Below the pieces are notes generated by a model, which was given only the letters and a program-made list of their open reading frames with translations, was not told where the DNA came from and made no database searches. Shown here one piece after another: positions 1 through 21,639 of a DNA stretch of 64,000 nucleotides. Both the position numbers and the translations under genes were made by a program. This DNA comes from an uncultured bacterium (lineage in GTDB: Bacteria > Zixibacteria > MSB-5A5 > CAIYYT01), in NCBI GenBank assembly GCA_963707485.1, contig CAVPQS010000065.1, positions 654-64,653 on the forward strand, read 5' to 3'. Each line of letters begins with the position of its first letter. Within the stretch, counting starts at the first letter, position 1.

Positions 1-160
1 TGCCGGGGGTGACGTTGCCGAAAATGAAGGTCGAATCGACGGCGGTAATCCTCTGGTTCGGCGCCGGATAGATGACCACGATGCGCGGCGTGTTTTGCGC
101 GGCAACGAAACCGACCAGGAACAAAAATACCACTGCCGTGGGCGCGAGTCTATTAAGCAA
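1..160 (-). CDS. Partial CDS (N-terminus only; runs off the window start): secreted protein of unknown function, probable 4th gene of the murein-peptide operon
   Basis: Reverse-strand reading from TTG at 160..158 gives LLNRLAPTAVVFLFLVGFVAAQNTPRIVVIYPAPNQRITAVDS..., a signal-peptide-like N-terminus. GGAGGAGG lies 6 nt upstream. The start overlaps the stop of the epimerase gene by 8 nt. The ORF is not in the provided track because it is open-ended. Confidence 0.35.
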   Translation of the reverse strand, partial: MLNRLAPTAVVFLFLVGFVAAQNTPRIVVIYPAPNQRITAVDSTFIFGNVTPG

Positions 161-1172
161 GAACAACCTCCTCGGATGTGATGCCGATTCCGGGGCCGCC
201 GGGCAGGACCAGAACATCGGCGTCGAAATGTGCGCCCCAATAGGGATCGTTTTCGGTCAGCATGATGGCGTCGAGGTCGAAATAATCGAACAGCGAAGAC
301 AGGTGCAGGGCGGCGGTGATACCGATTGCCGATTCCAACATGCAGCCAAGCAGCAACTGCAATTTGTGTTCGCGCGCGATTTCCGCCAATGCAATTACGC
401 GCTTGATGCCGCCGTTTTTGGAGAGCTTCAAGTTTACGCCGTTGACGACTTTGTAAAAGCGCTCGATGTCTTTCTCCGCAATGACTGATTCATCGAGGAA
501 TAATTTGCATTCGACCTTGGTTTTGATGCGGTCGAGCTCGCGGACGGTCGGTTCGGCCAATGGCTGCTCATAAAATTCGACCGGATACCCGCGCAGCGCT
601 CTGATGTGCTCGATGGCGTCGTCGCGCGTCCAGCCGCCGTTGGAATCGAGATAGAGCCGTTTCTCGCCCTGCTTGAGGACGAGGTCGATAAACTTGAGAT
701 CGCCGGCAAAACCGACTTTGAGTTTGAGGTTGCGGAACGCCGAGGCCGATTCGAGTTGCCGCATCACGTCGTCATCGGAAGCATGAGTGATCGTAAAAGC
801 GCTGACAGCCTTTTTCGGCGCCGGAAGTTGCAGATATGTATGCAGCGGCAGTTCGAGTTCTTTGGCGAGATGATCGAGCATCGCCATTTCGATGGCGCAG
901 CGGGCGACGTTGAGCGAGGGCGGCAAATTGCCAATGAATTTCTTGAGCGCGGCGACGTTCCAGTCTTCGTGGAATTTTTGCAGACGCTGTTGAGTTAGTT
1001 CGAGGCATTGCTCCGATGAGGCGCCATAGTGAATGGACGACGAACCCTCACCGATGCCGCGTTTGTAGCGCGCAACCAGAGTTTGCTTTTGCGCCGCGCT
1101 GCCTTTCGAAATGTTGAAGGCGCGCTTGAGACGAAGCTCGAGCAATTTCAATTTGACGGCGGAATCAGCCAC
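153..1172 (-). CDS. L-Ala-D/L-Glu epimerase (enolase superfamily; mandelate racemase/muconate lactonizing enzyme (MR/MLE) family dipeptide epimerase)
   Basis: 339 aa with MR/MLE-type motifs (KLKVG, DSNGGW, LFLDES, EQP). Sits in an operon with an LD-carboxypeptidase and an NlpC/P60 peptidase, as in the B. subtilis ykfABC murein-peptide operon. Confidence 0.8.
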   Translation of the reverse strand: MADSAVKLKLLELRLKRAFNISKGSAAQKQTLVARYKRGIGEGSSSIHYGASSEQCLELTQQRLQKFHEDWNVAALKKFIGNLPPSLNVARCAIEMAMLDHLAKELELPLHTYLQLPAPKKAVSAFTITHASDDDVMRQLESASAFRNLKLKVGFAGDLKFIDLVLKQGEKRLYLDSNGGWTRDDAIEHIRALRGYPVEFYEQPLAEPTVRELDRIKTKVECKLFLDESVIAEKDIERFYKVVNGVNLKLSKNGGIKRVIALAEIAREHKLQLLLGCMLESAIGITAALHLSSLFDYFDLDAIMLTENDPYWGAHFDADVLVLPGGPGIGITSEEVVLA

Positions 1173-2103
1173 TGGTAACCTCTTGAAGCAGCGTCAAAGA
1201 GTGGGCGTCGGCATTGAGACGCGCGCGGGCGCCAAACGGAATGGTGATCGACTTATCGCAATGGCCATAGCGAACACCGGTGATGACAGGAATCTCGCGC
1301 CGGAAAATGGTCTTGATGCGTTCGCGAAAAAGCGCGTCATGTTTTTTACTCGAAGTCAACGGAGTTGTTTCACGCCAATCGGTGTCGCCGATGACAACGC
1401 CTTGCACGCCATAGAGCAATCCCGCGAGTTTGAAGTGATTGAGGAAGCTGTCGAGGTGATCCACGGTTTCGTTGACGTCTTCGAAAAACAGGATGGTATT
1501 GTCAAAGCGGGGGAGATAGCCGGTGCCGATAAGCTGCACGAGCGAGAAGAGATTGCCGCCCATGAGGATTCCTTCGGCAGCGCCGGGATTGACGACTTCG
1601 ACATCGTCCTGATTATCCGCGGGGATCAATTCCCTGCCGGTGCAGTCGCCGCAGATGAGCGGCAAGAGCGCGTCGCGGCCGTCGGCATCCATGGCGGCAA
1701 GCAGCGGGCCGGAGAACGTGACGAGACCGGTTTTGACATAGAGAGCGCTCTGGAGAATTGTCAGGTCGGAGAGTCCGATGACGACCTTGGGGCGATTTTT
1801 GACGGCGGCGTAGTCGATGAGATTGAGCAGACGAAGAACGCCGTAACCGCCGCGGCCGGCGATCATGCCTTGAATTTTCGGAGAGCGAAATGCGTCGTTG
1901 ATTTCGGCGGCGCGTTGTTCGTCGGCGGCGGAGAAGCCGTTGTGTTCTGAGTCAAGGAGACGCGAGCCTTCGAGCGTGAAATGTTTTTCCATCAGTGTGG
2001 CGCCATGATTATAGTAGCGCGTCATCGCTTTACCACTCTTGAGCGAGCTAGCAGGAAAGAAAATCTTGAGGCGGCTTTGCTGATGGAGACGCTTGGCGAT
2101 CAT
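1165..2103 (-). CDS. ldcA: LD-carboxypeptidase (muramoyltetrapeptide carboxypeptidase, peptidase S66)
   Basis: 312 aa with an S66-like core (GYGVLRLL, GLSDLTIL, catalytic Ser context). Overlaps its neighbours by 4-8 nt, which indicates an operon. Confidence 0.75.
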   Translation of the reverse strand: MIAKRLHQQSRLKIFFPASSLKSGKAMTRYYNHGATLMEKHFTLEGSRLLDSEHNGFSAADEQRAAEINDAFRSPKIQGMIAGRGGYGVLRLLNLIDYAAVKNRPKVVIGLSDLTILQSALYVKTGLVTFSGPLLAAMDADGRDALLPLICGDCTGRELIPADNQDDVEVVNPGAAEGILMGGNLFSLVQLIGTGYLPRFDNTILFFEDVNETVDHLDSFLNHFKLAGLLYGVQGVVIGDTDWRETTPLTSSKKHDALFRERIKTIFRREIPVITGVRYGHCDKSITIPFGARARLNADAHSLTLLQEVTSG

Positions 2104-2849
2104 GACTCCAGAATCCGTTTGACGGTTGTGATCGCGCCGGCAAGATCGCTGCGGAATTTCGGATGATTTGGGGCGAGCGATTCGAGCGCGACCATTCCAC
2201 GAAGGCGCGAGGCGTGGAGTATCTTGCGGTCAGTAAGAAGAATCGCAACGTGGCCGGGGAAAAATATCAGGTCGCCGGCGACGGACTCTTCGAGAGTCAC
2301 TTCCGTGCCAACGAGGGTCTGGTCCTTACTGTCGCGCGGCAAGTTGACGCCGACTCGACGATAGAGGGTTTGCGTGAAGCCGGAGCAGTCAAAGCCGAGG
2401 CTGGAGCAACCGCCCCACAAGTACGGCGACGACACGAGCGAGATTCCTTCAGCAATAATGCGGTTAAGCGGAACGTCTTCGATGATGTCGAGGCGCCCAA
2501 ACAGCAATATCAATTCGGCGCCGTCGTGTGCGTAAAAAAGGTCGCCGCCTCCGGACGCGATGAGCGAACCGAATGGGAGTACCAGTCGACCGTTGCCGGT
2601 CTGGTCGTCAAGTATGGCGATATTTGATGTGACGACCGTGAGATTGGACTGCGGTTTGTCGGCGGTGACCAGATAGGAAGAGCCGATCCAGCCGCGATAG
2701 CCGTCCTCGGATTCGCAGAGTGCAAATGTGTCCCGGAACTCGAGCTGCTTGACGATGTGGCCGTAGAGCACCTGCGAGACCCGTTCAGAGCGATGATCGG
2801 GAGCACGGCGCATGTCAGCAACGGGAATGATTGGTTGCGCTGGTTGCAT
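2100..2849 (-). CDS. NlpC/P60 family gamma-D-glutamyl-L-diamino acid endopeptidase with N-terminal SH3-like domain
   Basis: 249 aa; C40 catalytic core YLWGGCSSLGFDCSGF (Cys) plus a downstream His context. First gene of the minus-strand operon. Confidence 0.75.
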   Translation of the reverse strand: MQPAQPIIPVADMRRAPDHRSERVSQVLYGHIVKQLEFRDTFALCESEDGYRGWIGSSYLVTADKPQSNLTVVTSNIAILDDQTGNGRLVLPFGSLIASGGGDLFYAHDGAELILLFGRLDIIEDVPLNRIIAEGISLVSSPYLWGGCSSLGFDCSGFTQTLYRRVGVNLPRDSKDQTLVGTEVTLEESVAGDLIFFPGHVAILLTDRKILHASRLRGMVALESLAPNHPKFRSDLAGAITTVKRILES

Positions 2850-3406: not shown

Positions 3407-4441
3407 TTAGAAGGCGAACTTGACCGTGAAATATTGATTATCGTCGAAGCCGGTCACATCGACCTGCTGCCAGGAGTAGTCAAAACTCACGTGCGAGTTG
3501 CCCCAATTGAACTTCACACCAGCGCCGAACGAACCGCCGTACGAGAAATCATCCTGGCTTGAGCCGACGAAACCGCCGCGCAAGAAGAATGTGTCGTTAA
3601 ATCCGTACTCGGCGCCACCCTTGAACTCATCCTGTGAGAAGTTGTTGCTCTGGAAAGTGCCGGAGAGTTCGAGATCGTTTTTCTCGTTGTTCTGCAGCGC
3701 ATTCCAAGCCACGCCAAACTGGATTGAGGAGGGCAGATCGAAACCTTCGCTCTCGGTGCGAACCGTTTTGGGAGCGGAGTTTGGATCGTTGGCATCGGGA
3801 ATGGTCTTGATGTCGAAGCCTGCGCCAGTGAACTGCATTTGCGGTCCAATGTGCTTGACGACGACGCCAAATTTCAGTCCCTGCCAGTTGGGCTGGTAAG
3901 TAAAGCCGAAATCAAACGCTGTTCCGCGGGCGGAGACTTGCTCGACCTTCTCATTGACAAAATAAGCGGTCGCGCCGAAAGACACGCGATCAGTAAACTG
4001 GCGCGCGTAGGTCAGGCCGATGACGGAAAACGTCGGGTTGAAGGTTTCACCACTGGATCCCTGCTGGTCGTCCCAAGTGGTTTTCAACATATCGCCGATC
4101 GAGAGCACCTTGACGGAGGCGCCGAGGGTGCCAAAGCCTTCAACGGTCGTGGTGACGGCGACATATTCGAGGTTCATATCAGCAAAGTACTCGAGATGCG
4201 AGAACATCGCCTCGGTACCAGCCTGATTAGCGGCTCCAGCCGGATTCCAGTAGAGCGCTTCAGCGCCGTAGGAATTGGCGATCATAGCGCCGCCTAAGGC
4301 CGAACCGCGCGAACCGACCGGAATGCGCAATTCCTGGGCTCCGGCGGTTCCGATTTTAATCTCATTGCCGGCGAGGAGCATCGCGCTCGTGAGAATCAGC
4401 AGCGCCGACGAAAGCAAGAATATCTTTTTCATCGTATTCAC
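3407..4441 (-). CDS. porV: PorV/PorQ-family outer-membrane beta-barrel (FadL-like fold), T9SS-associated shuttle/porin candidate
   Basis: 344 aa with a signal peptide. The N-terminal motif GAQELRIPVGSRGSALGGAMIA...EALYWNPAGAA matches the PorV/PorQ family signature. The C-terminal F is typical of OM barrels. Immediately downstream of a T9SS-CTD cargo gene. Confidence 0.55.
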   Translation of the reverse strand: MNTMKKIFLLSSALLILTSAMLLAGNEIKIGTAGAQELRIPVGSRGSALGGAMIANSYGAEALYWNPAGAANQAGTEAMFSHLEYFADMNLEYVAVTTTVEGFGTLGASVKVLSIGDMLKTTWDDQQGSSGETFNPTFSVIGLTYARQFTDRVSFGATAYFVNEKVEQVSARGTAFDFGFTYQPNWQGLKFGVVVKHIGPQMQFTGAGFDIKTIPDANDPNSAPKTVRTESEGFDLPSSIQFGVAWNALQNNEKNDLELSGTFQSNNFSQDEFKGGAEYGFNDTFFLRGGFVGSSQDDFSYGGSFGAGVKFNWGNSHVSFDYSWQQVDVTGFDDNQYFTVKFAF

Positions 4442-4449: not shown

Positions 4450-7400
4450 TTAGAAGGTATCCAATTGTTCGACTTCAGGGAAGATCGCCATTTTGCCGAA
4501 CTTTGTTCCCAAGCCATCAGCTTCGATGACCCAAATGTAAATACCGGAAGCGACCCAAAGGCCGGCTTCGGTTTTGATATCCCAAACGAATTCGGGATCA
4601 GAAGTGCCTCCGCTTCGCTCCAGCGTGCGCACGAGATCACCGGCGATATTGTAGATTTTGATCTTCATCGCCTGATTAGGAGGAAGATTTATGAACTTGA
4701 TGATGCGATCAAACTGGTCGATTTCTTCCGGATAGAAAGCGTAGTACGGATTGGGCACTGTTTTGACCTGATCAAGACTGTTGGTAATGAGAACATCGTC
4801 GCCACTGGCGGCTTCCGGCTTCACCGTCGTGAAAGTATATCTCACGGCCGGATTGTTCGGATTATTCTTCGTTATTATCAGCTTCTGTCCATCCGCAAGT
4901 TCATCCGCCGGTACATGACCGGGACGGATGCGCGGCCACAGGGAGTAAAGAACGTCCATATCGGCGGCGTCGTTGCTCATGTTCTGCGAGGCGTAAGTCG
5001 GATCGGGGTTGCCGGTGTAAGTACTGTTCATGATGAACAAATACTCGCGTCCGGTGCCATCCTCATCACATGGGAGCCAGGTAGAATCGAAGCAGGGATC
5101 GCCGTATTGCTCCGCAATTAAGACGTTCAGTTGACGTTCCGGAACAGTACTGACATCCCAAGCGGTGAATGGGACGTCAAAAAAGCCATTGTAACAGTAA
5201 CTTCCGCCGCAAAGGGGTGTGCCACTGCGAAGATAGAAATGACCCTTCTGCGTTGTTGTGAAGCTCCAACGAATTTCGACGTTTTTGTAGTCGAGTGGAC
5301 CTACACTTGAGCCAAAGAAGTCTGCTCCATTTCCGAGTGCCCCGAAGAATTGCGGCAGGCCGGTATCCACGCCGGTGATCCAGCGAGTGCCTACCCATTC
5401 GTAGCCCTTGATGCCCGGCGTCGGTCCGACAACGCGAACCTGGATTCCTTCGACAACGGGATACCCGTAATCGTCGGCCTGGGTTGCGATACTATCGAGC
5501 AGAAGCGTTCCGGTCGTCAGATTCTTGAGGTTCCAGGTCAGATCTTCGTTGAAGGTAACTTCATAATCATCCCCGGTGACGTCACCGGGATTGATATACT
5601 CTACAGTCGTCACTCCATCGCTGCTGCCTTCCGGTTCTTGCGTTGCAGTTTGGCTCAGAGCGCCGACAAAGGTATACGGCTTGACTACAAACGGAATAAG
5701 AGGACTTTCCAGCGTCTCCGTGATGTAACCCAGGAAGTTTCCACTGGCGTCGTCGAATGGTGTAATATTCAGATAATCGTATGAATAAGCCGTCACTGCG
5801 AAGTAGTACGGCTGGTTGTTCTTCAGCGGTACTCCCGTTATTTGGCTATTTGTGAATGTCTGATTGTAGACCAATCCGGAGTTTGACCCTTTCTGAAGGA
5901 TAATTCTTTGTGAACCACCAGCAGATGCGTCGACAACGTCACCGTATATCAACGATACTGGTTCTTCCTGATCATCCACGGCGAGATCGTAAGTGGCAAA
6001 TTTGGTCCAGGGACCGTTTGCAGATTCACCTTGATACAGGTTGTATCCTTCAAAATGGAATTCCTGGCCTAGCTTCGCGTTAGCTTCGACATTTCCGACT
6101 GGTTCGGTTCCCCAGATCATCTCAACCGCTCCGTCCAAGCCACGCAGAAATACTGACGGCGATGGCGGCGGATCCGGGATGTCAAAGTTAAGATCAAATA
6201 CGGCCTGTGCGGCAACGTCAGCCGCCTTCAAAGCGGAAATCGAATTCAACGGGCTCGAACCCTGGGCGACGATAACGGCCGCGACCACTTCCTGAGTATC
6301 GCCGACGGCCATCGTAAACGGACCGGCAGACATCATGTAGCGGCGGTCGGCGGAGGCTTCATCAAGCCATCCGGTTTGCGTTACCGGATCACCGGAGACA
6401 GCATAAGTGGTAATAGCGCTGTCGGCTTCATTATAAGTATGGGTCGGAACCATATCGCCAGTTGCCGGGTCTTTGGTGAGACCCTGCATGTAGCCGTAAG
6501 TTTCCACACGGCTGGCAGGATCGGTACCATTGATGTACTTGTTAAATGACGCCATTGGCAGGTTTCTAAAGCCCTGGCGCCATTCTCCGTTTACCAGTGC
6601 GGAGTCGCCTTCAGACGGGACAATCGGTCCCTCGAAGAAGTCGAATCCAACGGCGGGCGGAGCCGCACCATAGTTAGCATCATCGCCTTCGTTGTAACAA
6701 TAGCCCAATGACAGCAGCGTGTCGCAACCGACCAAGTCGTCGGAGGCGTTACCAAGATCGGGGTCGGCCCAGAGGGAGATATAAGTGTCTCTCAGGTCGT
6801 TCGCGCCTTTATTGATGATTTTGTACTTGAAGAACACGGTGTTTCCAAGTGCGCCACCGCGCGCGAAGGCGAAGGCAGACATTTGCACCTCGAGACCAAG
6901 CGGGGCTGTGCTGGCGGCATTGTTGATGTGGCCAGCCGGGTCGGCATCATTAAATACTGACCAAGCCATTTGATTGCCAAGAATCAACGGTTGACCGAGC
7001 GAATCTACCGGAGCGCCCTGCTCTACCGGCCAGTTCGCGTAGTCCGGATTCGAGGAGGCGTCGTCGCCTTTAGCAACCTTATAAACTCGGAATCCGGCAT
7101 TATCAGTTTGATAGGTCCCGTCTGCCATCGGACCGGGAGTAAACTCCGATGAGTATTCGGCGATGGCGAGGCGGATCGAATCCGGACCGGTTCCTACCTT
7201 TGCGCCGATCCAGAGACCGGCGGAGTAGATGACGGTCTTCTTGGTTCCACGCGGGAAGTAGAGACCGTCAGTCTTGCCCAGCACGTTGGCATTATCATAG
7301 GCAAAGTTACCGTCGTTATAGACAAACATTTCGAGGTTGTTAATATCTATACGGGTATCAGTGTCGAGGATTAATGCCGTCTGCGAGCCATGCCACTTCC

Positions 7401-7515
7401 CAGTAACGTTACTGAGACCCCACGCGACCGTGGTCATCAACAGGAACATCAGCAGGGAATAGAATAATCTCGTTTTCTTCATCAGCTTCCTCCTGAAGCG
7501 TTCAGGTTCATTCAC
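4450..7515 (-). CDS. Large secreted protein (1021 aa) with C-terminal T9SS sorting domain (Por_Secre_tail-like); N-terminal domain paralogous to the protein at 56560..58773
   Basis: Signal peptide. C-terminus VPNPYY...MKIKIYNIAGDLVRTLE...FVWD...ASGIYIWVIEADG...KFGKMAIF fits the T9SS CTD pattern (PNPF.. / IYD.xGR.V / WDG / SGVYFY / KK). The N-terminal ~300 aa align with the 737-aa protein (SEFTPGPMADG / SEFSPGPIGSNG; ANWPVEQGAPVDSLGQPLILGNQ / RNWPASDGAPVDALGRPLIKGSQ; FNDAD; PDLG / PDIG). Confidence 0.7.
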   Translation of the reverse strand: MNEPERFRRKLMKKTRLFYSLLMFLLMTTVAWGLSNVTGKWHGSQTALILDTDTRIDINNLEMFVYNDGNFAYDNANVLGKTDGLYFPRGTKKTVIYSAGLWIGAKVGTGPDSIRLAIAEYSSEFTPGPMADGTYQTDNAGFRVYKVAKGDDASSNPDYANWPVEQGAPVDSLGQPLILGNQMAWSVFNDADPAGHINNAASTAPLGLEVQMSAFAFARGGALGNTVFFKYKIINKGANDLRDTYISLWADPDLGNASDDLVGCDTLLSLGYCYNEGDDANYGAAPPAVGFDFFEGPIVPSEGDSALVNGEWRQGFRNLPMASFNKYINGTDPASRVETYGYMQGLTKDPATGDMVPTHTYNEADSAITTYAVSGDPVTQTGWLDEASADRRYMMSAGPFTMAVGDTQEVVAAVIVAQGSSPLNSISALKAADVAAQAVFDLNFDIPDPPPSPSVFLRGLDGAVEMIWGTEPVGNVEANAKLGQEFHFEGYNLYQGESANGPWTKFATYDLAVDDQEEPVSLIYGDVVDASAGGSQRIILQKGSNSGLVYNQTFTNSQITGVPLKNNQPYYFAVTAYSYDYLNITPFDDASGNFLGYITETLESPLIPFVVKPYTFVGALSQTATQEPEGSSDGVTTVEYINPGDVTGDDYEVTFNEDLTWNLKNLTTGTLLLDSIATQADDYGYPVVEGIQVRVVGPTPGIKGYEWVGTRWITGVDTGLPQFFGALGNGADFFGSSVGPLDYKNVEIRWSFTTTQKGHFYLRSGTPLCGGSYCYNGFFDVPFTAWDVSTVPERQLNVLIAEQYGDPCFDSTWLPCDEDGTGREYLFIMNSTYTGNPDPTYASQNMSNDAADMDVLYSLWPRIRPGHVPADELADGQKLIITKNNPNNPAVRYTFTTVKPEAASGDDVLITNSLDQVKTVPNPYYAFYPEEIDQFDRIIKFINLPPNQAMKIKIYNIAGDLVRTLERSGGTSDPEFVWDIKTEAGLWVASGIYIWVIEADGLGTKFGKMAIFPEVEQLDTF

Positions 7516-7517
7516 CC

Positions 7518-10376
7518 TTAGAACATTAAGCGCAGGCCGAGACGGACCTGACGCGGCGTATCGTAACTGCCCGGATTATTCTGCTTGAAGGTGTACTTCG
7601 CAAGACCCTCTTCACCGTAGTTGTTAAGGAATTCTTGTCCGGGAGCAGTCGACAGCCAGCCGGTGTTATCAGCACGGCCAGTACCCTCGTAAACATCCAA
7701 TGCGTTCTCGGTGTCGAAAATATTGATTACCCAAAGGTAAACATCAAAAGTGAGACGAGCGAGCTCAAAGGCTTTGCTGGCCTTGAGATCGAGTCTATAG
7801 GTCCACGGGCCGGTCCGCGAGTTGATCTTTCCGATTGGGGTCGGGTTCGTTGACGCCAGCGAGATTTCATTATAAACCTCGACCGGAGTGTACGGAGTGC
7901 CCGATCCGGCGCGGAAGACGAAGTTGATACCGGCGTTTTCGAACGGGTGCATGTTGCCCAGCTTGGGACCCTGGCCGGCGCCGGCGCGAACGTCGACAAT
8001 AGCCGTGATTTTGTGCCGCTGATCGTAGTCGAGCGGCGAAATACGAATCGGGCGCTCGGAGTTAACCCAGGCAACGTTGCCCTGCGAAGTCGCATAGGAA
8101 CCGGTACCGGCAGCATACGAAAGCGAGTAATTCAACTCGGCTGCGACCGAACGGGTACGGCGCATTTTAAGGGCGAAATCCAGACCCTTGATGGTGCCGA
8201 AGTCGTGGTTGCGATAGGTCGCAAATGCGTTCGGCGAGGAGGGCTGGTTGATTACTTCGGTCTGGCCATTAACGTCTTTGTAGTAAGCTGTGACGTTAAG
8301 GCTCGTGAAGTCACCCAACTGGTGGGCGAGGCCGACTTCGTAAGCCGTCGTTTCTTCGGGCTCAAGATTCGGATTGCCGATAGGCGCGTAGTACGGGGCG
8401 TCCGCGACCATTCGTTCGAGGAAGCGAGTGCCAACGTAGAGGTACTGCAATTCCGGGCGCTGGAAGAACTTGCCGTAGTTCACATGGAATACGGTGCGGT
8501 CGGAGACCGGAAAACCAACGCCGAGACGCGGAGATACCTTCTGTTCGGCCTTTGCCGGTTCGAAATCGCCATCGTCGAGTTTTGTGGCATTGAGGATCTC
8601 TTCATTGGTGTGCGAACCCGGATCGGCCAGAATGTTTGTCGGGTCGAGCGGACGCTCTTCGTTTTTCAAGCGATCGGTATTAGCGTTCAGGTAGTCGTAA
8701 CGAATACCGGCATTAACCACCAGTCCTTCGAATTCGAACTTATCCTGAAGATAAACCGCGAACATATACGGCTTCTTGGCGCCGTCGGGACCGTCATCGA
8801 CATTGCTTTGGCCGGTCTTGTCGTAGCCAAAGAAGTTGGCATCACTCCAGGACGTGCGATCAAACTCGATGGGGTCGGTGATGGTAGTGTCGATTTTGGT
8901 CGGGTCAAGATGATCATAATAACGCAAGTTGTGGCGTTCGAATTCGGCGCCAAACTGCATTTCGTTATATTCGTTGACCTGGCTGGTCAGATCGAAGTTG
9001 ACGCCGACATAGGACGAACTGCGTTTGAGCACATCTTCCCAAACGTGGCCTTCGTCTGCGGCCGTAGCCGGATCGTCGCCGATCCAGAACAAGTTGGTGG
9101 GGTCGAAGTTCGGGTTGCCACCGGGACGGCTGTAACCAAGAATGTCATCCCAAATGGTTTCATCGCCGCGGAATCTCTTCGTCAGGTAGTAGGTACCGCC
9201 CAACTCAAAGAAGGTCTTTGGCGAGATGTTATTCGTCCACTTGCCGTAGTAGGAATAGTTCTCGTCGAGATAGCGCGGAGCATGGCTGCCATTGAAATAG
9301 TAGTTCATGCGGAACTCGCGCCACTCTTCGTAGCTGCCGAGAGTTCCAAAACGCAGCACGTTCTGTTTGTTCAGATCGTAACGCAGTTTGCCTTGCCAGC
9401 TCCAGCCGGACAAGTCGTTGTGCGGTAAAATTCCATCAGCAATCGCACGGGGTTGACGATCGCCGAGACGGCGGCGTTCCATCGATGCGAAAAAGCTGGC
9501 TTTATCGTTATTGGGAAGAATCGGACCGTCAAGGTTGAAGGCGAGGACATTGTAATTGAAGCGGCTGTCCGAACCCATGAACTCATCGGTTGATGCTTCA
9601 AAGGCGCCGGAATACTCCTTGGCGCCTTCTTTGGTGGTAACGTTGATTGCGCCGGAAGAAATCCAGCCGTATTCGGCGTTGAAACCGCCGGTCGAAATCG
9701 AGATTTCTTCGATAGCATTGTTATTGATGGCTGTTGTCGACATGTTGGTCAACGGATCCTGTTGAGAGAAACCGTCGACGAAATAGGCGACGTCACCCTG
9801 ACGACCGCCGCGGATGTTGAGCGCGGGCTGGTTGCTCTGCTCGCGACCGCCGCGGGTACCGACTGCGGAAGCTTCCACGTTTTCGGAATACGCGACGACA
9901 CCGGCGGACAGACCGACAACGTCGGTATAACCGCGGGTGGGAAGTTGCTGAATTTCGTCACCAGAGACGATTTTCAGCGACTTGGTTTGATCGAGGATGA
10001 TGAGGGGACGTTCAGCAATAACGACCTGAACTTCGCCAGTGAGAGATTTTGAGGATAATTGGAAATCTGCATTCGTGGTGAGATCGACCGAGACGCCAAG
10101 TCCCTGCAATTCCACCGGAGCATATCCAATTAGTTCTGCTTTCAGAGTGTATTGACCAACGGGGACGTTCAAGATAAAGAACTTTCCTTCGACGTCGGTT
10201 AACGCTCCCATTGTGGTGCCGACGATTGTCACCGCCACACCGGGAAGAGCGGATCCCGTTTCCTTGTCGGTGACTTTTCCGCTGATTTTGCCGACGGTAG
10301 CCGCCTGTGCAAAGACGCAGAGTGCCATGACGAGGATGAGGATCAGAGCTACTTTTGGTTTAAGATTCAAAACCAA
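7518..10376 (-). CDS. TonB-dependent receptor with N-terminal carboxypeptidase-regulatory-like (CarbD) domain
   Basis: 952 aa; signal peptide; CarbD motif GKVTDKETGSALPGVAVTIVGT...TDVEGKFFI; plug domain; C-terminal RLGLRLMF (terminal Phe). The start is TTG, preceded by AGGAGG. Confidence 0.85.
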   Translation of the reverse strand: MVLNLKPKVALILILVMALCVFAQAATVGKISGKVTDKETGSALPGVAVTIVGTTMGALTDVEGKFFILNVPVGQYTLKAELIGYAPVELQGLGVSVDLTTNADFQLSSKSLTGEVQVVIAERPLIILDQTKSLKIVSGDEIQQLPTRGYTDVVGLSAGVVAYSENVEASAVGTRGGREQSNQPALNIRGGRQGDVAYFVDGFSQQDPLTNMSTTAINNNAIEEISISTGGFNAEYGWISSGAINVTTKEGAKEYSGAFEASTDEFMGSDSRFNYNVLAFNLDGPILPNNDKASFFASMERRRLGDRQPRAIADGILPHNDLSGWSWQGKLRYDLNKQNVLRFGTLGSYEEWREFRMNYYFNGSHAPRYLDENYSYYGKWTNNISPKTFFELGGTYYLTKRFRGDETIWDDILGYSRPGGNPNFDPTNLFWIGDDPATAADEGHVWEDVLKRSSSYVGVNFDLTSQVNEYNEMQFGAEFERHNLRYYDHLDPTKIDTTITDPIEFDRTSWSDANFFGYDKTGQSNVDDGPDGAKKPYMFAVYLQDKFEFEGLVVNAGIRYDYLNANTDRLKNEERPLDPTNILADPGSHTNEEILNATKLDDGDFEPAKAEQKVSPRLGVGFPVSDRTVFHVNYGKFFQRPELQYLYVGTRFLERMVADAPYYAPIGNPNLEPEETTAYEVGLAHQLGDFTSLNVTAYYKDVNGQTEVINQPSSPNAFATYRNHDFGTIKGLDFALKMRRTRSVAAELNYSLSYAAGTGSYATSQGNVAWVNSERPIRISPLDYDQRHKITAIVDVRAGAGQGPKLGNMHPFENAGINFVFRAGSGTPYTPVEVYNEISLASTNPTPIGKINSRTGPWTYRLDLKASKAFELARLTFDVYLWVINIFDTENALDVYEGTGRADNTGWLSTAPGQEFLNNYGEEGLAKYTFKQNNPGSYDTPRQVRLGLRLMF

Positions 10377-10862: not shown

Positions 10863-11525
10863 CTACAAAGTCGTGATTACGCCGAACACCTGTTCGATAG
10901 CGTTGGTGAGTTGGTAGAACGCTTTCGATTTATCGGTGGCTTTGCCGGTGAGTTGCTCGAGGCTGGTAACTGAATCAGGAGAGAATCCGCAGGGATTGAT
11001 TAGCTGGAAGTAGTTCAAGTCAGTATCGAGGTTCAGCGCCAAGCCATGATAGCTAACCCAACGTTTGACGGCGATGCCGATGGCGCAGATTTTTTTGTCA
11101 CCAACCCAGACACCGGTTTTTCCAGCGGCGCGGGTGCCGACGATGTCGTAGTTCTTCAGAAAAACGATGACGATTTCTTCGAGATTGCGCAAGAATTTGT
11201 GCAGGTCTCTTCCCCGCTGGTCGAGGTCGACTATCGGATAGATCACTTGCTGGCCGGGCCCGTGGAATGTGACGTCGCCGCCGCGTTCGACCTCGTATTT
11301 TTTTACGCCGCGTTGGGCAAGGATTTCGTCGGAGACCAGAACATTGGCGCTGCCGCCGCCGCGACCGATCGTGATGGTTGGCGAGTGCGTCGTGAAGATG
11401 AAAGTGTCGGGGGCTTCGCCGGCGATGCGTTTATCGACCATCTGCAATTGCAGTTGTCGGGTCTTGTCGTAGTCTGACAAGCCGAGGTCGAAGATGCGGG
11501 CTTTGGTGGTGGTGGTCATACTCAT
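10863..11525 (-). CDS. lipB: Lipoyl(octanoyl) transferase
   Basis: 220 aa with LipB motifs TITIGRGG, FHGPGQQVIYPI, ICAIGIAV, GLALN. Confidence 0.85.
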   Translation of the reverse strand: MSMTTTTKARIFDLGLSDYDKTRQLQLQMVDKRIAGEAPDTFIFTTHSPTITIGRGGGSANVLVSDEILAQRGVKKYEVERGGDVTFHGPGQQVIYPIVDLDQRGRDLHKFLRNLEEIVIVFLKNYDIVGTRAAGKTGVWVGDKKICAIGIAVKRWVSYHGLALNLDTDLNYFQLINPCGFSPDSVTSLEQLTGKATDKSKAFYQLTNAIEQVFGVITTL

Positions 11526-11592
11526 CTACTTCTCTTGCGCAATTCACTGCTGATTCGATAGCGGGTCGATGTTAGAGCGAACTTCAGAAATA

Positions 11593-12405
11593 TCAATCAT
11601 TTGCGAGTCGATCTCGATACGATTTGAGTTCGTCTTCGCTTAATTCGTTCGCGGCGACAAGTCGATACTGCCGTTCGGTACTGACCCTCAAGCCATCGAC
11701 AGTCATTTCAAACAAAAAAACAGCTATGAGGTCCTCTTGAACATACTGGGCGGCAACCGGCTTGCAGACAAGCGCGGGATATTTGGCAGCGCATAATTCG
11801 CAGTCTTGTTCAATCTGGACCACGCCAATTCTGTCCGAACGCCCTTTCGCTTGAACGGGCACAATGTAATGGACGCCTGACCTGTCAACTCCGACATACA
11901 TTTCATCCGTTTCAACCTGGCCGATACTCGCGACGGAAGTTCGGAGATGGCTTTGCAGTGAATAACAAGTAATGCCGAGAAAAATATCGATTAATCGATT
12001 GTACCTAAGTTTTGCAAGAAGACTCTGCTCGTCATTCAGAGCGTACTTGACGACGATGGCCGGCGTTGCGTCCGGGATCTTGGTCTCAGCGCGATTGGGG
12101 TCCGGACGAACATGGACGATTCGGTTCAGCTTAAATTCGTACCGAGCTCTTCCTGTCCCTCGAATTATCCACTCCCAGCCTTTTGGCGCTTTCTTTAGGA
12201 TCGAGGCAGGGAGATTGCTTCGATAGCGGAAGCTGTAAATTATGTCGCCAAGATTCTTGGGGAGCTTGATCTTGAGTCGCTTGGCAATCGCCTCTATTTC
12301 ATCCCGCGTAAATTCAATTGAGCTTGCGCCCTCTGAATAGTTGTCGAAGAAGAGTTTTTCGACAATTAGTGTATAGCGATTCTTACTAACATCTTGTGGC
12401 GACAT
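11593..12405 (-). CDS. Putative type II restriction endonuclease (cognate R subunit of the adjacent methyltransferase)
   Basis: 270 aa from ATG at 12405 (MSPQDVSKNRY...). The ATG lies 1 nt after the TAA of the upstream methyltransferase, which implies translational coupling. Possible PD-(D/E)xK-like segment VGVDRSGVHYIVPVQAKG. No confident family assignment. AT-richer than the flanking genes. Confidence 0.4.
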   Translation of the reverse strand: MSPQDVSKNRYTLIVEKLFFDNYSEGASSIEFTRDEIEAIAKRLKIKLPKNLGDIIYSFRYRSNLPASILKKAPKGWEWIIRGTGRARYEFKLNRIVHVRPDPNRAETKIPDATPAIVVKYALNDEQSLLAKLRYNRLIDIFLGITCYSLQSHLRTSVASIGQVETDEMYVGVDRSGVHYIVPVQAKGRSDRIGVVQIEQDCELCAAKYPALVCKPVAAQYVQEDLIAVFLFEMTVDGLRVSTERQYRLVAANELSEDELKSYRDRLAND

Positions 12406-12406: not shown

Positions 12407-13753
12407 TTACCCCTTCCAAGAGAGTCGAATAACTTCTTCACGAAGCGACGATCTTGTTGCCGTTGCGGCGCGCATTCTGTAGAGGTCAATTCCGTCGACC
12501 TGGTACCCCAACTCAGAGGCAATTTCACCGAGCAACTCACCCGTTTTTATCATTACCTGAAGGTACGACGCCTGGTCGCCGACAACATAAGCCAGCTTTG
12601 CGCCGGGTCGCAGGGCTCTTCGGAGCTCCGCAAAATGACGGGTCATGCCCCCAAAATAAAGTTTGGTGACCCGAGCGTAGAGTTTTTCAAACCCAGATGT
12701 CTTTCCGAGTTTAAGTCTTCGTCTTTCGATTTCAGTCGCTATTGAGTCGATCTTGTCGTTTGTCGAGACCCAAAGATCGTCCTCGTCTTCTTTGTATGCT
12801 CCGCGAGTGTTAGACCTGAGCAGCCCCTTCTTCATAAGCCGTAGCTCAGCCTTGTTGTTGACAAACCCCAAAATGACGGACTCCAAACGAGTCGTTCGAG
12901 TATAGTCCTTTTCATTGGGGTAAGGCGGCGAAGTGATTACCGCGTCAACGCTGCCGGGTTCGATCAAATTGCCGATCTGCCGCGCGTCACCCTCGATAAC
13001 ACTCGCTTCAGGATAACTCTTACGCCTGAGCGCACATATGTCCGCAGCAACTCTCTCAATTTCCTGCAGCCAAGGACCCACAACTGGTGTATCCACTTTG
13101 ACCTTGCCCAAGCCCACTTCGGGCCCGAACCGCAAATTGCTATAGGAGAAAACCAGACACTTTGCGAATACAAGTCGGAGGTGCCCGTGAATTTGCTTTT
13201 CTTTTGTTGCGTCAATTAATTCAAGCAGAATTAATGCCTTGTGGAGTGGCAGTGGGCTGATCGAGTTTGTAATTAAGACCGCCAACTTGTCATCCGCTAC
13301 CGTTCTTAAATGACCCGACGGGGGTTGGCTCTTACAGTGTTTGCTATCCACAAAGCCGGAATCAGCAATTTTGCGTTCGGCGACGTCAGCGATTTCATGT
13401 GCGTGAGCAAGCAGCAGCTTCGGATCGACCGACCAGTCGAGCTTGACGTTAGAAGCGAATGCGGCGACGGGATTCGCTTCGACGCCGATTGCCTTCATTC
13501 CATTCAGCCTTGATTGGATTAGGGTGGTACCGGTGCCGCAAAACGGATCAAGCACAGTTGCTCCCTCTGGCAAAGCGAATAATTTGGTATACCGATCTAC
13601 AATTTCAGGGGGATAGGCAAGCACGAAACGATACCAATTGTGAATTGGATAGTCTGCAGGCAGCAATCCCGCATTGAACCGCTTCCGCCCGAAACTCTTT
13701 AACAATGAGTCGGGAGATTCGAGTGTCAAAAAATCATGTGACCAGTCAGCCAT
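12407..13753 (-). CDS. DNA methyltransferase (N4-cytosine or N6-adenine; motif I N-terminal, motif IV SPPY C-terminal)
   Basis: 448 aa; motif I VLDPFCGTGTTLIQSRLNGMKAIGVE; motif IV DAVITSPPYPNEKDY (SPPY is more typical of N4C MTases). Forms an R-M operon with the downstream ORF. Confidence 0.8.
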   Translation of the reverse strand: MADWSHDFLTLESPDSLLKSFGRKRFNAGLLPADYPIHNWYRFVLAYPPEIVDRYTKLFALPEGATVLDPFCGTGTTLIQSRLNGMKAIGVEANPVAAFASNVKLDWSVDPKLLLAHAHEIADVAERKIADSGFVDSKHCKSQPPSGHLRTVADDKLAVLITNSISPLPLHKALILLELIDATKEKQIHGHLRLVFAKCLVFSYSNLRFGPEVGLGKVKVDTPVVGPWLQEIERVAADICALRRKSYPEASVIEGDARQIGNLIEPGSVDAVITSPPYPNEKDYTRTTRLESVILGFVNNKAELRLMKKGLLRSNTRGAYKEDEDDLWVSTNDKIDSIATEIERRRLKLGKTSGFEKLYARVTKLYFGGMTRHFAELRRALRPGAKLAYVVGDQASYLQVMIKTGELLGEIASELGYQVDGIDLYRMRAATATRSSLREEVIRLSWKG

Positions 13754-13931
13754 TTATTCCAATCTGCAAGATTCCTGATAGGCACAACCAAGTGGAATCT
13801 CACCTGCGACACTATGAGCGGGGCGAGAATCCAATGTCAATCACTTTAGCAAAAGTCGCAATCGCTTTCCGACTGGACAACCAATCAAGAACCCCATCGT
13901 GGAAATCTCTTCAAATGGCTTCCTTCGATCA

Positions 13932-15215
13932 TTACAGCAGCAGCAATTCCGGTTCTTCGATGTAGCCGATCAGCTTGCGCAGGAACTGGACGGCGTAAGC
14001 GCCGTCGATCAGGCGATGATCGAAAGACAATCCGAAGTTCATCATGTCGCGGATGACGATCTGACCGTCGCGGACGACCGGACGTTTTTGGATTGCGTGA
14101 ATGCCGAGAATCGCGACTTGCGGCTGGCTGATGATCGGGGTCGAATTAAGCGCGCCGTAACCGCCGGCGTTGGTCAACGAGAAAGTGCCGTCTTCGATGT
14201 CGGCGGGCATCAGGCGATCGGCGCGTGCGCGGTCGCCGAGGTCTTTCATTTCCTTGGTGATCTGAATGATGCCTTTCTGGTCGGCAGCTTTGATGACCGG
14301 AACGATCAGCCCGGATTCGCGAGCGACGGCGATACCGATGTTGTAGTAGTGCTTGACGATGACTTTGTCGACGGTCATCGAGGAATTCATCAGCGGGAAA
14401 TCTTTCAGCGCTTTGCAAGCTGCAACGACTATGAAAGGCATGTAGGTTATGCGAATGCCGTGTTCTTTTTCGATGCGTTCGACGTTTTTGGTGCGGAACT
14501 CGACCAGGCGCGTGAAGTCGCATTCATCGAAAGTCGTTACATGCGGCGAAGTCTGTTTCGATTTGACCATGTGGTCGGAGATGAGCTTGCGAACGCGAGT
14601 GAGTGGAAATTCCTCGACGCGTTTGCTTGTGTCATATACCTGCTGGGGCGCAGCCGGCGCCGCAGCCGTTGTTCCGGCTGCTGCAGGAGTTGCAGCGCCG
14701 CCGGCGCCTTTGGAGGCGATAAATTCTTCGACGTCTTTTTGGGTCACGCGACCACCGCCGCCGGTACCGTGCAAGAGCGAGACATCAATGCCGTGTTCTT
14801 TGATCAGGCGGCGAACGACGGGAGATAATTTGACTGGACCCTCGGAGGCTACGGGTGCACTGACCGGCGCCGGAGCAGCGGGAGCAGCTTTGGCGGCAGT
14901 TGGTGCGGGTGCGGGTGTGGGTTTCGCAGCAGCGGCAGGAGCTGGAGCGGATTCGACAGCAGCGCCGGCTTTCTCGCCCGGGGCGCCGATGACGGCGATT
15001 TCCCTTCCGACAGGAACGATATCGCCGACATTGGCTTTGATTTCGAGTAAGACGCCGTCAGCCTCGGCGGGCACCGAGACATTGACTTTGTCGGTCAGTA
15101 ATTCGACGATCGGTTGATCTTTCTTGATTGTGTCGCCGACTTTGACAAACCACTGATTAATTGTGCCTTCGACGACTGATTCCCCCATTACGGGGACTTT
15201 CATGATATAAGCCAT
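13932..15215 (-). CDS. Dihydrolipoamide acyltransferase, E2 component of a 2-oxoacid dehydrogenase complex
   Basis: 427 aa; N-terminal lipoyl domain (VVEGTINQWFVKVGD...LLTDKV), Ala/Pro-rich linkers, peripheral subunit-binding domain, catalytic domain ending DHRLIDGA. Confidence 0.85.
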   Translation of the reverse strand: MAYIMKVPVMGESVVEGTINQWFVKVGDTIKKDQPIVELLTDKVNVSVPAEADGVLLEIKANVGDIVPVGREIAVIGAPGEKAGAAVESAPAPAAAAKPTPAPAPTAAKAAPAAPAPVSAPVASEGPVKLSPVVRRLIKEHGIDVSLLHGTGGGGRVTQKDVEEFIASKGAGGAATPAAAGTTAAAPAAPQQVYDTSKRVEEFPLTRVRKLISDHMVKSKQTSPHVTTFDECDFTRLVEFRTKNVERIEKEHGIRITYMPFIVVAACKALKDFPLMNSSMTVDKVIVKHYYNIGIAVARESGLIVPVIKAADQKGIIQITKEMKDLGDRARADRLMPADIEDGTFSLTNAGGYGALNSTPIISQPQVAILGIHAIQKRPVVRDGQIVIRDMMNFGLSFDHRLIDGAYAVQFLRKLIGYIEEPELLLL

Positions 15216-21400: not shown

Positions 21401-21503
21401 TTGCCTTGGCGACGCAGACGGCACCGGAATCATCACGATTTCCGACGCTGTGTTTTTGATCAACTACATCTTCGCCGGCGGACCGGCTCCTTCGGGCTGC
21501 TAA
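18453..21503 (+). CDS. Secreted BNR/Asp-box repeat protein (sialidase-like beta-propeller fold) with C-terminal tandem dockerin-like module
   Basis: 1016 aa; signal peptide; AAAGGAG Shine-Dalgarno; Asp-boxes STDLGVTW and SSTDGETW. The C-terminal 68 aa hold two repeats GDADNTGIITISDAVYLINYIFAGGPAP..C / GDADGTGIITISDAVFLINYIFAGGPAPSGC that resemble dockerin EF-hand repeats. Confidence 0.8.
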   Translation: MKKLALLVVSFVYVISLLSVSVFAAKAKESSASGIDPRDIVAESSKNPLTDIQLEQLNRSGSKPGADMGQTSLGFMASPGIMIGNTGYDIQHNSRMGRQIVQGPSGRVHFVWTHKLAGVGSTIREIRYGSYVPGTGFFDLPGGLTISDGREGHMCSIDQFGNRALPVWRYGATFAAYRSTSALDFAAGAGSFTIVDLPSAANNCEGIFCGAILEPYVWPVVAADVDGGGNPISHIVAMEGNSGSEYSAMTYYRGTGVSFTNYGTCGMFMDSTTAISYTIAQDPGSNKVAIAYAKARTAATSRENNDLAYRMSTDLGVTWSPVVNVTNYASSALERVSQETSSMFSADGCFHILYTAAFYDSAAAQVADQEAKLYHWDDCQNCKSLILDANNFHANCNMKAFEHNVCRISMTECTVAATKTLYAVYTRYVGDTDPGTPALTDCSAGQFPNGEIYASASSTDGETWGPPVNLTNSRTDNCASGACDDDNFSSAAMYSTDSLRIEYLNDKDAGSGVGNDGTAETYSPVMFLSHPCFAMSTYRSLSSTPSGILYPFHAAANAAANTNIVLTNAGNATANWTRTIAYDIGSGWLTVPAAGLVTAGCTNSQNLAITAGPIATEGYYSATITFTYEGPTSFDVPVEFYVFNSFFLPQDQAIRTSLVRMNVNQAGRNSHQETGRMFFSFNDGLEPFYDGSLVLGNSAASLSWLIFEGGGNVPSASNPFGYLYALSNTTYDSTGNANYRFASGKGTNRDSTLGFSVTYYAPKHPDSSTFIAAVYKLYKGAKNPSGSVTNLTVAYAADIDVPDDSSDNIGGADASRQTIYQKGRYAPDDLRFAGVRGVIKNGSPVTGGFNWENDVTVYPLGGFENDTLWNKLQAVTGYSVTDSTEDLNSVLTVARGITINGSANDTLDFAILFVGTDGIQSLANFQTQLDKAMAWVCGHVYAGADACANCACGDADNTGIITISDAVYLINYIFAGGPAPVQLCLGDADGTGIITISDAVFLINYIFAGGPAPSGC

Positions 21504-21594: not shown

Positions 21595-21639
21595 AGCACG
21601 ATTGGCGCTGTGTGCCGTTATAATCCCAGACATGTTGTT

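Follow-up and report, generated by a model that had tools for sequence, protein, structure and literature searches.

Two large open reading frames on the minus strand of the window, the whole 64-kb stretch of DNA analysed here, encode the proteins that we refer to as A (4450..7515, 1021 aa) and B (56560..58773, 737 aa), both of which are present at these coordinates; all other features given below for the two loci are encoded on the same strand. While the mechanical reading frame of A extends to 7515, its true start is probably Met12, at an ATG at 7482 that has an AGGAGG 6 nt upstream, and approximately 100 full-length orthologues of 975–1017 aa align from residue 12, giving a likely coding sequence of 4450..7482 for a protein of 1010 aa. 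A predicted Sec-type signal peptide (MKKTRLFYSLLMFLLMTTVAWG, 7417..7482) can be read off the sequence, and appears as an N-terminal helix in the AlphaFold model of A (pLDDT 90.5, pTM 0.82). The window comes from a MAG of Candidatus Zixiibacteriota, and protein B, which is 100% identical to a protein from such a MAG (P0241), has 37 orthologues of 724–746 aa, and its model has a pLDDT of 75.5.

A shared head followed by unrelated middles

The initial annotation had described N-terminal homology between A and B over ~300 aa, and this is borne out and exceeded in length. BLASTP returns a single alignment, of A residues 56–427 with B residues 28–379 (32% identity, 48% positives, E = 2e-49), which spans the entire ~380-aa N-terminal domain, holds all of the motifs cited earlier and is not of low complexity. 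The shared head so aligned occupies 6196..7368 in A (ORF residues ~50–440, with a long helix at its end) and 57595..58692 in B (residues ~28–393, including the terminal helix), and a family HMM finds the domain in A (E = 1e-178) and B (E = 6e-105) and in no other open reading frame of the window. On domain annotation, the head of either protein matched no Pfam or NCBIfam model (NCBIfam at E ≤ 1), and in the structure models it forms a beta-supersandwich. A and B belong to a family that is very large, with 6,480 representatives in the sequence library, and has no name. Its members, which would be surface proteins exported through Sec, are all predicted to carry a ~390-aa all-beta supersandwich head closing in a long helix, everything past that helix being modular. 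Members are spread across Zixibacteria and the neighbouring FCB-group phyla Eisenbacteria, Latescibacteria and Delongbacteria.

The best structural match of the head, in both models, is the N-terminal beta-sandwich of the GH94, GH116, GH149 and GH161 families and of dextran dextrinase (prob 1.0, 300–460 aligned columns), at a sequence identity of just 8–15% and a high RMSD. With the A head, Foldseek retrieved the N-terminal domains of GH116, GH94, GH149 and dextran dextrinase (prob 1.0), and with the B model the same GH94/GH116/ExoMA2 N-terminal domains; the fold match is modest, with a TM of about 0.2 on full length and an RMSD above 10 Å. The (alpha/alpha)6 catalytic domain that GH94, GH116, GH149 and GH161 enzymes require is missing from both proteins, the models being all-beta after the head and no Pfam glycoside hydrolase model matching, and A and B therefore lie outside those enzyme families. 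Their reading as GH94/GH116-type glycoside hydrolases or phosphorylases is rejected, as the N-terminal sandwich alone is matched, and the fold match suggests a head that probably binds ligands or glycans.

Between head and C-terminal tag the two proteins are unrelated by BLASTP, over ~500 aa in A and ~290 aa in B. The A-type-specific body (4765..6195, ORF residues 441–917) consists of FN3/Ig-like and further beta domains, is all-beta in the model and is kept in 120 orthologues at 30–91% identity; it is absent from B, to which BLASTP finds no significant similarity. The B-type-specific middle (56767..57594, residues 394–669) is likewise made of beta domains, among them an MSP/ASH-like Ig domain (Foldseek MSP-domain matches, TMt ~0.6), and is kept throughout the B-type alignment and modelled at a pLDDT of 80–95.

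C-terminal modules and their exchange

The proposal made at the outset, that A and B are paralogues whose C-termini carry different targeting modules, a T9SS CTD and a dockerin, stands. The predicted T9SS-type CTD of A (4483..4764, ORF residues ~918–1011) runs through the motifs VPNPYY, IKIYNIAGDLVRTL, ASGIYIWV and GKMAIF. Curated models score it below their thresholds, TIGR04183 at 18.0 bits (cut-off 23) and PF13860 at 19.3 bits (cut-off 27), and PF18962 was not reported on A. Despite these sub-cut-off scores its identity is confirmed at the level of profiles and models: an HMM built from the Pfam-flagged tails of relatives in the lineage matches at E = 2e-8, a profile of A-type tails retrieves the CTDs of PorU (E = 0.0025) and PorZ from the PDB, a model of the PorZ C-terminal end matches at 24 bits, and the AlphaFold model contains a confident C-terminal beta-sandwich, the region for which the top Foldseek match is PorZ (5m11). 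The dockerin of B (56569..56766, residues 670–735) contains two calcium-loop-plus-helix repeats, GDADNDGVFDLIDLLHMVRILY and IDADCNQRFNLIDLMSFVNFLY, together with an invariant cysteine pair; the repeats fit two tandem loop-and-helix segments of ~22 residues, and the model places helices at 683–695 and 716–728 with a pLDDT of ~90. Though PF00404 remains below its cut-off of 22.9 bits on B itself (15.0 bits for the whole protein, 21.1 bits for the tail alone), this predicted module is confirmed in the same way, with a match to the lineage dockerin HMM, built as for the CTD, at E = 5e-15, with dockerins as all of the top seven PDB matches to the B-type tail profile, covering both repeats (best E = 1.5e-4), and with Dockerin_1 (PF00404) matching 16 of 16 orthologous B tails (best E = 2.9e-7).

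The CTD of A does not end where its last strand ends. It continues into the C-terminal extension PEVEQLDTF (4453..4479), for which the consensus at the C-terminus is x-E-x-E-x-L-x-x-F/Y; 118 of the 119 A-type CTDs continue for 9–10 residues past the last strand and close with F or Y, which none of 53 ordinary CTDs from short members of the family does, those ending in K or R. The A CTD is a distinct, atypical subtype ending in ExExLxx[F/Y], and to our knowledge the extension has no counterpart. In this the A CTD departs from the usual type A CTD, where the last strand closes the protein with a basic residue.

Comparison across the family shows that the extreme C-terminus is an interchangeable address label, a putative T9SS-type CTD in some members and a dockerin in others. 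The 122 family sequences considered include 54 with a CTD and 34 with a dockerin, and among 132 unbiased representatives the figures are 85 (~65%) and 32 (~25%). When tag type was mapped onto a tree of 237 sequences (a distance-based neighbour-joining tree without support values), Fitch parsimony gave at least 13 switches between CTD and dockerin, compared with 60.7 when the labels were shuffled. Individual exchanges can also be seen: P0029 and P0030 have 86% identity over residues 1–417 and then continue into unrelated tails, a clean recent swap, and P0161 joins an A-type body to a dockerin at a clean junction. The modular exchange of tags suggested by the initial annotation therefore holds for the family, but not for A and B themselves, each of which has its own orthologue group with a stable tag (CTD in 119 of 120 A-type proteins, dockerin in 37 of 37 B-type proteins) and a middle unrelated to that of the other. 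By their sequences, A and B are old paralogues and not the products of a recent tag swap.

The situation resembles that of the ‘choice-of-anchor’ families, a name that NCBIfam gives to homology domains occurring with one or another C-terminal sorting signal, in that one extracytoplasmic domain is joined at a sharp boundary to varied surface-targeting signals. It differs in that the alternative to the T9SS CTD is a dockerin, a module for protein–protein docking, and not another signal for sorting to a membrane or cell wall, and at E ≤ 1 neither head is matched by any named choice-of-anchor NCBIfam domain.

Neighbouring genes as candidate surface receptors

The gene for A lies between two genes for outer-membrane proteins. 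Immediately upstream is a TonB-dependent receptor with an N-terminal CarboxypepD_reg domain (7518..10376; Pfam Plug, TonB_dep_Rec_b-barrel and CarboxypepD_reg), which reaches 63 bits against the SusC/RagA model TIGR04056, short of the cut-off of 368, and 8 bp downstream is an outer-membrane barrel of the PorV/PorQ family (3407..4441), which scores 164.7 bits against NF033709 (cut-off 90) and falls below the equivalog cut-offs for PorQ (87.7/220, the best), PorV (62/250) and PorV2 (63.6/325). An orthologue of the TonB receptor stands upstream of the A-type gene in five of five loci, barrel orthologues follow directly 3' of it (L001, L002/L003, L028, L029), and the order TonB receptor, A-type, PorV-like is kept in all five loci, from three phyla. 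The PorV-like gene is absent beside the short CTD-bearing relatives, and also at the one locus, located at a contig edge, where an A-type protein (P0161) ends in a dockerin. Signs of a T9SS within these 64 kb include the PorV/PorQ-family gene next to A and a second clear CTD protein.

A CTD-bearing surface protein paired with a PorV/PorQ-family barrel is familiar from the T9SS attachment complex of P. gingivalis, in which PorU is bound to PorV and PorZ to PorQ, both with their CTDs still in place (PMC5562754; PDB 5m11, 6za2). The CTD of A has its closest likeness in PorZ and PorU, whose CTDs stay uncleaved, and retention of the A CTD is a prediction from this likeness; the body of A, in contrast, is unrelated to the beta-propellers of PorZ or the peptidase of PorU, and A and its barrel share their operon with a TonB-dependent transporter. 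A would most likely leave through the T9SS and then be held on the neighbouring barrel by its uncleaved CTD, as PorZ is on PorQ, which would set the head of A beside the TonB transporter and able to capture substrate. The covalent T9SS anchoring that the initial annotation ascribed to A was an assumption; since its CTD is atypical, with the F/Y extension and a resemblance to the retained CTDs of PorU and PorZ, and since a private PorV/PorQ barrel gene adjoins, we consider PorZ/PorQ-style non-covalent retention at least as likely as covalent anchoring. The arrangement also recalls the SusC/SusD pairs of Bacteroidota, where a TonB transporter with a CarboxypepD_reg-like domain likewise stands beside a large, surface-exposed, non-catalytic protein, although here there is no SusD/RagB homologue, and A, rather than being a lipoprotein, is T9SS-type cargo that comes with a barrel of its own.

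The gene for B is part of a different cluster. Upstream is protein U (58838..62005, 1055 aa), which has a repeat-rich N-terminus followed by BACON domains, one predicted cohesin and a T9SS CTD (Pfam BACON_2, FlgD_ig and Por_Secre_tail; TIGR04183 at 32.4 bits, above the cut-off), and downstream is a DUF2279 protein (55772..56575, Pfam DUF2279 at 29.9 bits), whose start overlaps the stop of B by 16 bp. The predicted cohesin of U (59093..59560, residues ~816–971) stands just ahead of the CTD and is the only one in the window; the copy in the window scores 14.8 bits with Pfam Cohesin (PF00963; cut-off 24.1), which matches 12 of 16 U orthologues (best E = 2.2e-6), and with the profile of the orthologues five of six PDB matches are cohesins (best 4uyp_A, E = 6.9e-6). 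Every U orthologue has exactly one cohesin, adjoining the CTD. Of the 17 Zixibacteria loci that could be assessed, 16 have U ahead of the B-type gene, with identities as low as 37%, and all 17 have the DUF2279 gene after it. From this conserved adjacency and the identity of the domains, B would most likely dock non-covalently on the single cohesin of U, itself anchored by the T9SS, and U is a likely candidate for the surface receptor of B. The two-tier display model put forward earlier is in this respect supported.

A T9SS-anchored cohesin scaffold with dockerin display has already been proposed for Cloacimonadota, in the cellulosome-like system of Ca. Stygibacter, where a tandem-cohesin scaffoldin with a T9SS CTD is accompanied by dockerin-bearing enzymes (PMC8542988). 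Both systems come from candidate phyla of the FCB group and combine a cohesin protein anchored by a T9SS CTD with Sec-exported dockerin proteins that are presumed to dock on it. U differs in having a single cohesin and BACON domains rather than tandem cohesins with CBMs, in that the partner gene is immediately downstream, forming a conserved 1:1 pair together with DUF2279, and in that the cargo, B, offers a non-enzymatic head instead of a glycosidase or peptidase. For Zixibacteria, no report of such a cohesin-CTD/dockerin arrangement was found in the literature searched.

Other explanations bear on the tags as such and on the way A is held. Were the end of A a FlgD-type Ig domain and that of B a generic EF-hand pair, neither with any role in sorting, this would fit the standard-model scores for the two tails, every one of which is below its curated cut-off, and the FlgD and EF-hand proteins among the weaker profile matches; such a mis-call is extremely improbable, being largely refuted by lineage-specific HMMs that are significant for both tails, by top PDB profile matches to T9SS CTDs and to dockerins across both repeats, by the position of both modules at the extreme C-terminus in hundreds of relatives and by the adjoining genes for their cognate partners, a barrel of the PorV family for the one and a cohesin for the other. 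The CTD of A could instead be ordinary and cleavable by a PorU-like sortase, leaving A covalently on a lipid or LPS anchor and the PorV-like barrel as a general shuttle. PorV does have that function for CTD cargo in P. gingivalis (PMC5562754), and the A tail matches type-A CTD profiles, yet we regard this account as unlikely in view of the extra C-terminal segment that sets A-type CTDs apart from the ordinary CTDs of the same family, of best database matches to PorZ and PorU, whose CTDs are retained, of the strict co-inheritance of the PorV-like gene with A-type genes across three phyla and its absence beside short CTD-bearing relatives, and of barrel scores nearer PorQ than PorV.

For B, the dockerin might not be meant for the cohesin of U, their adjacency reflecting co-regulation or a shared function, with another cohesin elsewhere or a role as calcium-binding stabiliser. 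Both dockerin and cohesin of the window are weak by Pfam, EF-hand models match B-type tails too, no cohesin adjoins two more dockerin proteins in the window (18453..21503 and 21610..23793), and we know of no partner for many non-cellulosomal dockerin-like modules. Against this, the order of U then B persists in nearly all assessable loci down to low identity, the dockerin is of a distinctive subtype and present in all B orthologues, and the U orthologues without exception keep exactly one cohesin beside the CTD, and we hold this reading to be distinctly improbable. How B would reach the surface is a further matter, as it has no recognisable signal for outer-membrane crossing. Because B has only a Sec signal, the single cohesin of U adjoins a T9SS CTD and the genes for U and B are inherited together, it is conceivable, if quite doubtful, that the dockerin of B binds the cohesin of U in the periplasm and that the folded complex crosses the T9SS translocon on the CTD of U. 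To the whole explanation that we prefer, in which A and B would be ancient paralogues with modular address tags, each gene being linked to its own surface receptor (the barrel for A, the cohesin for B), we assign a probability of about 0.65.

Meaning for the family and its hosts

Zixibacteria and related bacteria, abundant in sediments and soils, are uncultured, and their cell-surface biology is essentially uncharted. What is new here is the protein family, whose head domain, with thousands of members, had no prior Pfam or NCBIfam model, and its two gene clusters, which are undescribed so far. Anchor swapping and the T9SS-anchored cohesin scaffold are ideas that precede this analysis, interchangeable C-terminal anchors and such a scaffold being already known (PMC8542988); with the general principles published, the advance lies in scope and detail rather than in kind.

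The TonB transporter, the A-type protein and its private PorV/PorQ barrel, a trio kept in at least three phyla, could be a functional counterpart of SusC/SusD outside Bacteroidota, and as such a candidate system for nutrient capture, and the 1:1 pair of cohesin-CTD and dockerin genes represents a minimal anchoring unit. Both modules yield predictions on the non-covalent anchoring of T9SS cargo, and the dockerin proteins pose the question of the route to the surface in a diderm cell. If B did travel on U, the dockerin would act not only as an anchor but also as an adaptor for secretion, and the swap of one small module would switch a protein between direct export, by its own CTD, and hitch-hiking export, by a dockerin. 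As the type of anchor is the sole systematic variable of the family, it offers a natural test bed for the exchange of surface-targeting modules.

A shared head and two divergent tails

The initial annotation had recognized two homologous secreted proteins in the window, ending in different C-terminal targeting modules (hereafter tags), and this observation is confirmed. Protein A (4450..7515, minus strand, 1021 aa) and protein B (56560..58773, minus strand, 737 aa) give a single BLASTP alignment (A56-427 / B28-379, 32% identity, E=2e-49), which spans the entire N-terminal domain, here called the head, and is not of low complexity. An HMM of the head matches exactly two ORFs within the window, A and B. 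Sec-type signal peptides are predicted from sequence at both N-termini; for A, the annotated GTG start is probably wrong and the ATG at 7482 the likely one, as the alignments of around 100 orthologues begin at residue 12 and this ATG has an AGGAGG 6 nt before it. A protein 100% identical to B is present in a Candidatus Zixiibacteriota MAG.

Neither tag passes curated thresholds, with the tail of A scoring 18 bits against 23 for TIGR04183 (the T9SS C-terminal domain, CTD) and 19.3 against 27 for FlgD_ig, and that of B scoring 15 bits against 22.9 for Dockerin_1, and for this reason independent tests of tag identity were run. Searches of PDB sequences with A or B alone gave no matches. HMMs made from those tails of relatives that Pfam had flagged match the tail of A at E=2e-8 and that of B at E=5e-15. 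For a profile from 16 tails of B-type proteins (the orthologues of B), all 16 of which match Pfam Dockerin_1, the seven best PDB matches are dockerins, aligned over both Ca-loop/helix repeats. The A-type family profile matches no PDB sequences other than the FlgD Ig domain and the CTDs of PorU and PorZ. The AlphaFold model of A (pLDDT 90.5, pTM 0.82), for which PorZ is the best Foldseek match, has a confident beta-sandwich at its C-terminal end, and that of B closes with two helices, a loop leading into each. With lineage HMMs, PDB profiles and structure models in agreement, both tags are kept as called, each a divergent member of its family. The B-type dockerin (B residues 670-735, 56569..56766, minus strand) also has a conserved MVRILYR helix, with one invariant cysteine in its second Ca loop (DA-N/D-C-D/N) and another near the C-terminus (P-C), and is plausibly a disulfide-stapled variant; the same PC ending is seen in other dockerins of the head family.

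No Pfam or NCBIfam model matched the head when A and B were scanned, but a full HMMER scan over 1.84 billion cluster representatives retrieved 6,480 family members at E<=1e-3, of which 1,862 reach E<=1e-30, with named sources in Zixibacteria, Eisenbacteria, Latescibacteria and Delongbacteria. A conserved Asp cluster (DPDLG...DDLVGCD) lies within the head. The models of A and B independently match the N-terminal beta-supersandwich of dextran dextrinase and of GH94, GH116, GH149 and GH161 enzymes; the catalytic (alpha/alpha)6 domain of these enzymes is missing from both proteins. Across 23 long family members scanned, no catalytic domain is fused to the head, only binding or structural domains (FG-GAP, BNR, CBM20, beta-helix, He_PIG and, once, cohesin), which together with the missing catalytic domain makes the head most likely a binding module. 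Short family members are stand-alone genes with no conserved partners. Some relatives, with either tag, have a head interrupted by ~300-370 inserted aa, always at one site (family HMM position ~171), and others carry two heads in tandem (among P0339-P0396 and P0281, P0282, P0300 and P0303), and one relative, P0041, has a precomputed ExbD/TolR (PF02472) match.

Tag exchange and the history of A and B

It is a recognized pattern for a single homology domain to carry alternative C-terminal anchors, as in the NCBIfam 'choice-of-anchor' families. The 120 best relatives of the N-terminal domain, taken together with A and B, include 54 proteins with a CTD and 34 with a dockerin, the remainder being mostly fragments, and an unbiased set of 132 representatives contains 85 and 32, respectively. 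Mapping the tags onto a neighbour-joining tree of 237 tagged heads requires 13 switches by Fitch parsimony, compared with 60.7 (minimum 51) when labels are shuffled on the same tree; tags are thus mostly inherited, yet have been swapped repeatedly. The junction is sharp: P0029 (CTD) and P0030 (dockerin) share 86% identity across residues 1-417 and are unrelated beyond. P0161 resembles A-type bodies up to about residue 868 and then continues into a dockerin. In P0300 a dockerin is internal and a CTD terminal. Two further long, dockerin-tailed proteins, P0311 and P0410, were considered as A-type tag swaps and rejected, as only the head and first FN3-like domain are common with A.

The proposal of modular exchange therefore holds for the family, but not as a recent event between A and B themselves. 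A has ~120 full-length orthologues (975-1017 aa), with a CTD in 119 of the 120, and B has 37 (724-746 aa), every one with a dockerin; the regions between head and tag (~480 aa in A, ~275 aa in B) are unrelated by BLASTP, and both types can co-occur in one genome, as on the 1.9 Mb contig behind loci L001 and L004. On these sequence comparisons, A and B are old paralogues. A recent derivation of A from 500-aa dockerin proteins was suggested by a first tree of the N-terminal domain, which placed A within their clade; this tree lacked the ~120 full-length orthologues, later retrieved by searching with the C-terminal half of A, making the placement an artefact, and the derivation was rejected after the tree was rebuilt.

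The A operon and its private barrel

The gene for A is preceded, at 35 bp, by that of a TonB-dependent receptor (7518..10376, minus strand) with Plug, barrel and N-terminal CarboxypepD_reg domains, and followed, at 8 bp, by a PorV/PorQ-family barrel gene (3407..4441, minus strand; 164.7 bits for NF033709, cut-off 90), whose closest equivalog is PorQ. All five A-type loci compared, drawn from Zixibacteria, Eisenbacteria and Delongbacteria, retain this order. Its sequence marks the A-type CTD as a subtype of its own, with 118 of 119 members ending in (K/R)-h-A-(V/I)-F-x-E-x-E-x-L-x-x-(F/Y); in short family members the ordinary CTDs terminate in K or R, and none of 53 has the extension. No PorV-like gene was found beside short CTD-bearing relatives at the loci examined, nor downstream of P0161, the sole A-type protein with a dockerin, where a gene for a Wzi-family (Caps_assemb_Wzi) outer-membrane protein (L027 3057..4562) occupies the usual slot of the barrel. 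In L001, a Zixibacteria locus, the PorV-like gene (11058..12081) that follows the A-type gene is broken between two reading frames (residues 1-90 and 90-344), which reflects a frameshift or else a fault of assembly.

In P. gingivalis, PorU and PorZ retain their CTDs and are held at the surface by PorV and PorQ (PMC5562754). By analogy, A would be exported via the T9SS and then retained on its own private barrel, next to the TonB transporter. The initial annotation had instead assumed covalent anchoring, and the CTD of A may be cleaved and the protein then attached covalently; it is the analogy with PorU and PorZ that leads us to propose barrel retention.

Just downstream of the operon (153..2849, minus strand) lie genes for an NlpC/P60 protein with SH3, an LdcA-like muramoyltetrapeptide carboxypeptidase and an L-Ala-D/L-Glu epimerase-like MR_MLE protein, and NlpC/P60, MR_MLE, Amidase_3 and Peptidase_S13 genes recur nearby in one other Zixibacteria and one Eisenbacteria genome (L001 12247..15904; L002 3968..4756 and 12791..14152). 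These genes may point to uptake of muropeptides or peptides, or their synteny may be coincidental; an assignment of the operon to peptidoglycan-peptide uptake was set aside because they are absent from L028 and L029.

A probable cohesin partner for B

Upstream of B by 64 bp is the gene for U (58838..62005, minus strand, 1055 aa), a protein whose N-terminus is rich in repeats and which has BACON domains and a T9SS CTD that is clear (TIGR04183, 32.4 bits, over cut-off). A segment of ~150 aa, set between this CTD and the last of the BACON domains, has in three orthologues a weak Pfam Cohesin score at the same position; a profile of 16 U orthologues, 12 of which match Pfam Cohesin, returns cohesins as five of its six PDB matches (best 4uyp_A, E=6.9e-6). 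Each U-type protein has one such putative cohesin, and that of U is the only one in the window. Downstream, the start of a DUF2279 gene (55772..56575, minus strand; a predicted periplasmic lipoprotein family) overlaps the B stop by 16 bp. A cohesin-CTD protein lies directly upstream of the B-type gene in 16 of 17 assessable loci and DUF2279 downstream in all 17, an order kept down to 37% identity. There is thus good comparative evidence that U and B form a dedicated cohesin-dockerin pair with a T9SS-anchored cohesin partner, which fits the two-tier display originally suggested. A comparable arrangement was inferred in 2021 for Cloacimonadota, that of dockerin enzymes and a cohesin scaffoldin anchored through a T9SS CTD (PMC8542988).

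Residues ~30-400 of U, its N-terminal third, contain repeated W-x-D-x-R-x-G-x-x-D-I/V-Y-x-Q-R-Y/F units with a weak match to the TIGR04275 beta-propeller repeat, probably a propeller at the distal end of the anchor. Many genomes with clear B-type orthologues and Zixibacteria-type synteny (L006-L019) are titled 'uncultured Ignavibacteria bacterium', probably a placeholder or mislabelled taxonomy. The window also encodes a 1016-aa dockerin-tailed protein with no other recognized domain (18453..21503, plus strand) and, adjoining it, an M1 aminopeptidase with a dockerin tail (21610..23793, plus strand); their dockerins are more canonical than that of B (lineage HMM E=4e-24 and 2e-19), and no cohesin is encoded near them.

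The mechanisms proposed for A and B are drawn solely from sequence, structure prediction and synteny, and the initial interpretation is supported in part. Our literature search returned no paper combining Zixibacteria with dockerins or with type IX secretion, and three elements appear to be undescribed: a very large head family matching no Pfam or NCBIfam model; the A-type subtype of CTD, together with the private PorV/PorQ barrel and the TonB transporter that accompany it; and a conserved 1:1 gene pair of cohesin-CTD and dockerin proteins.
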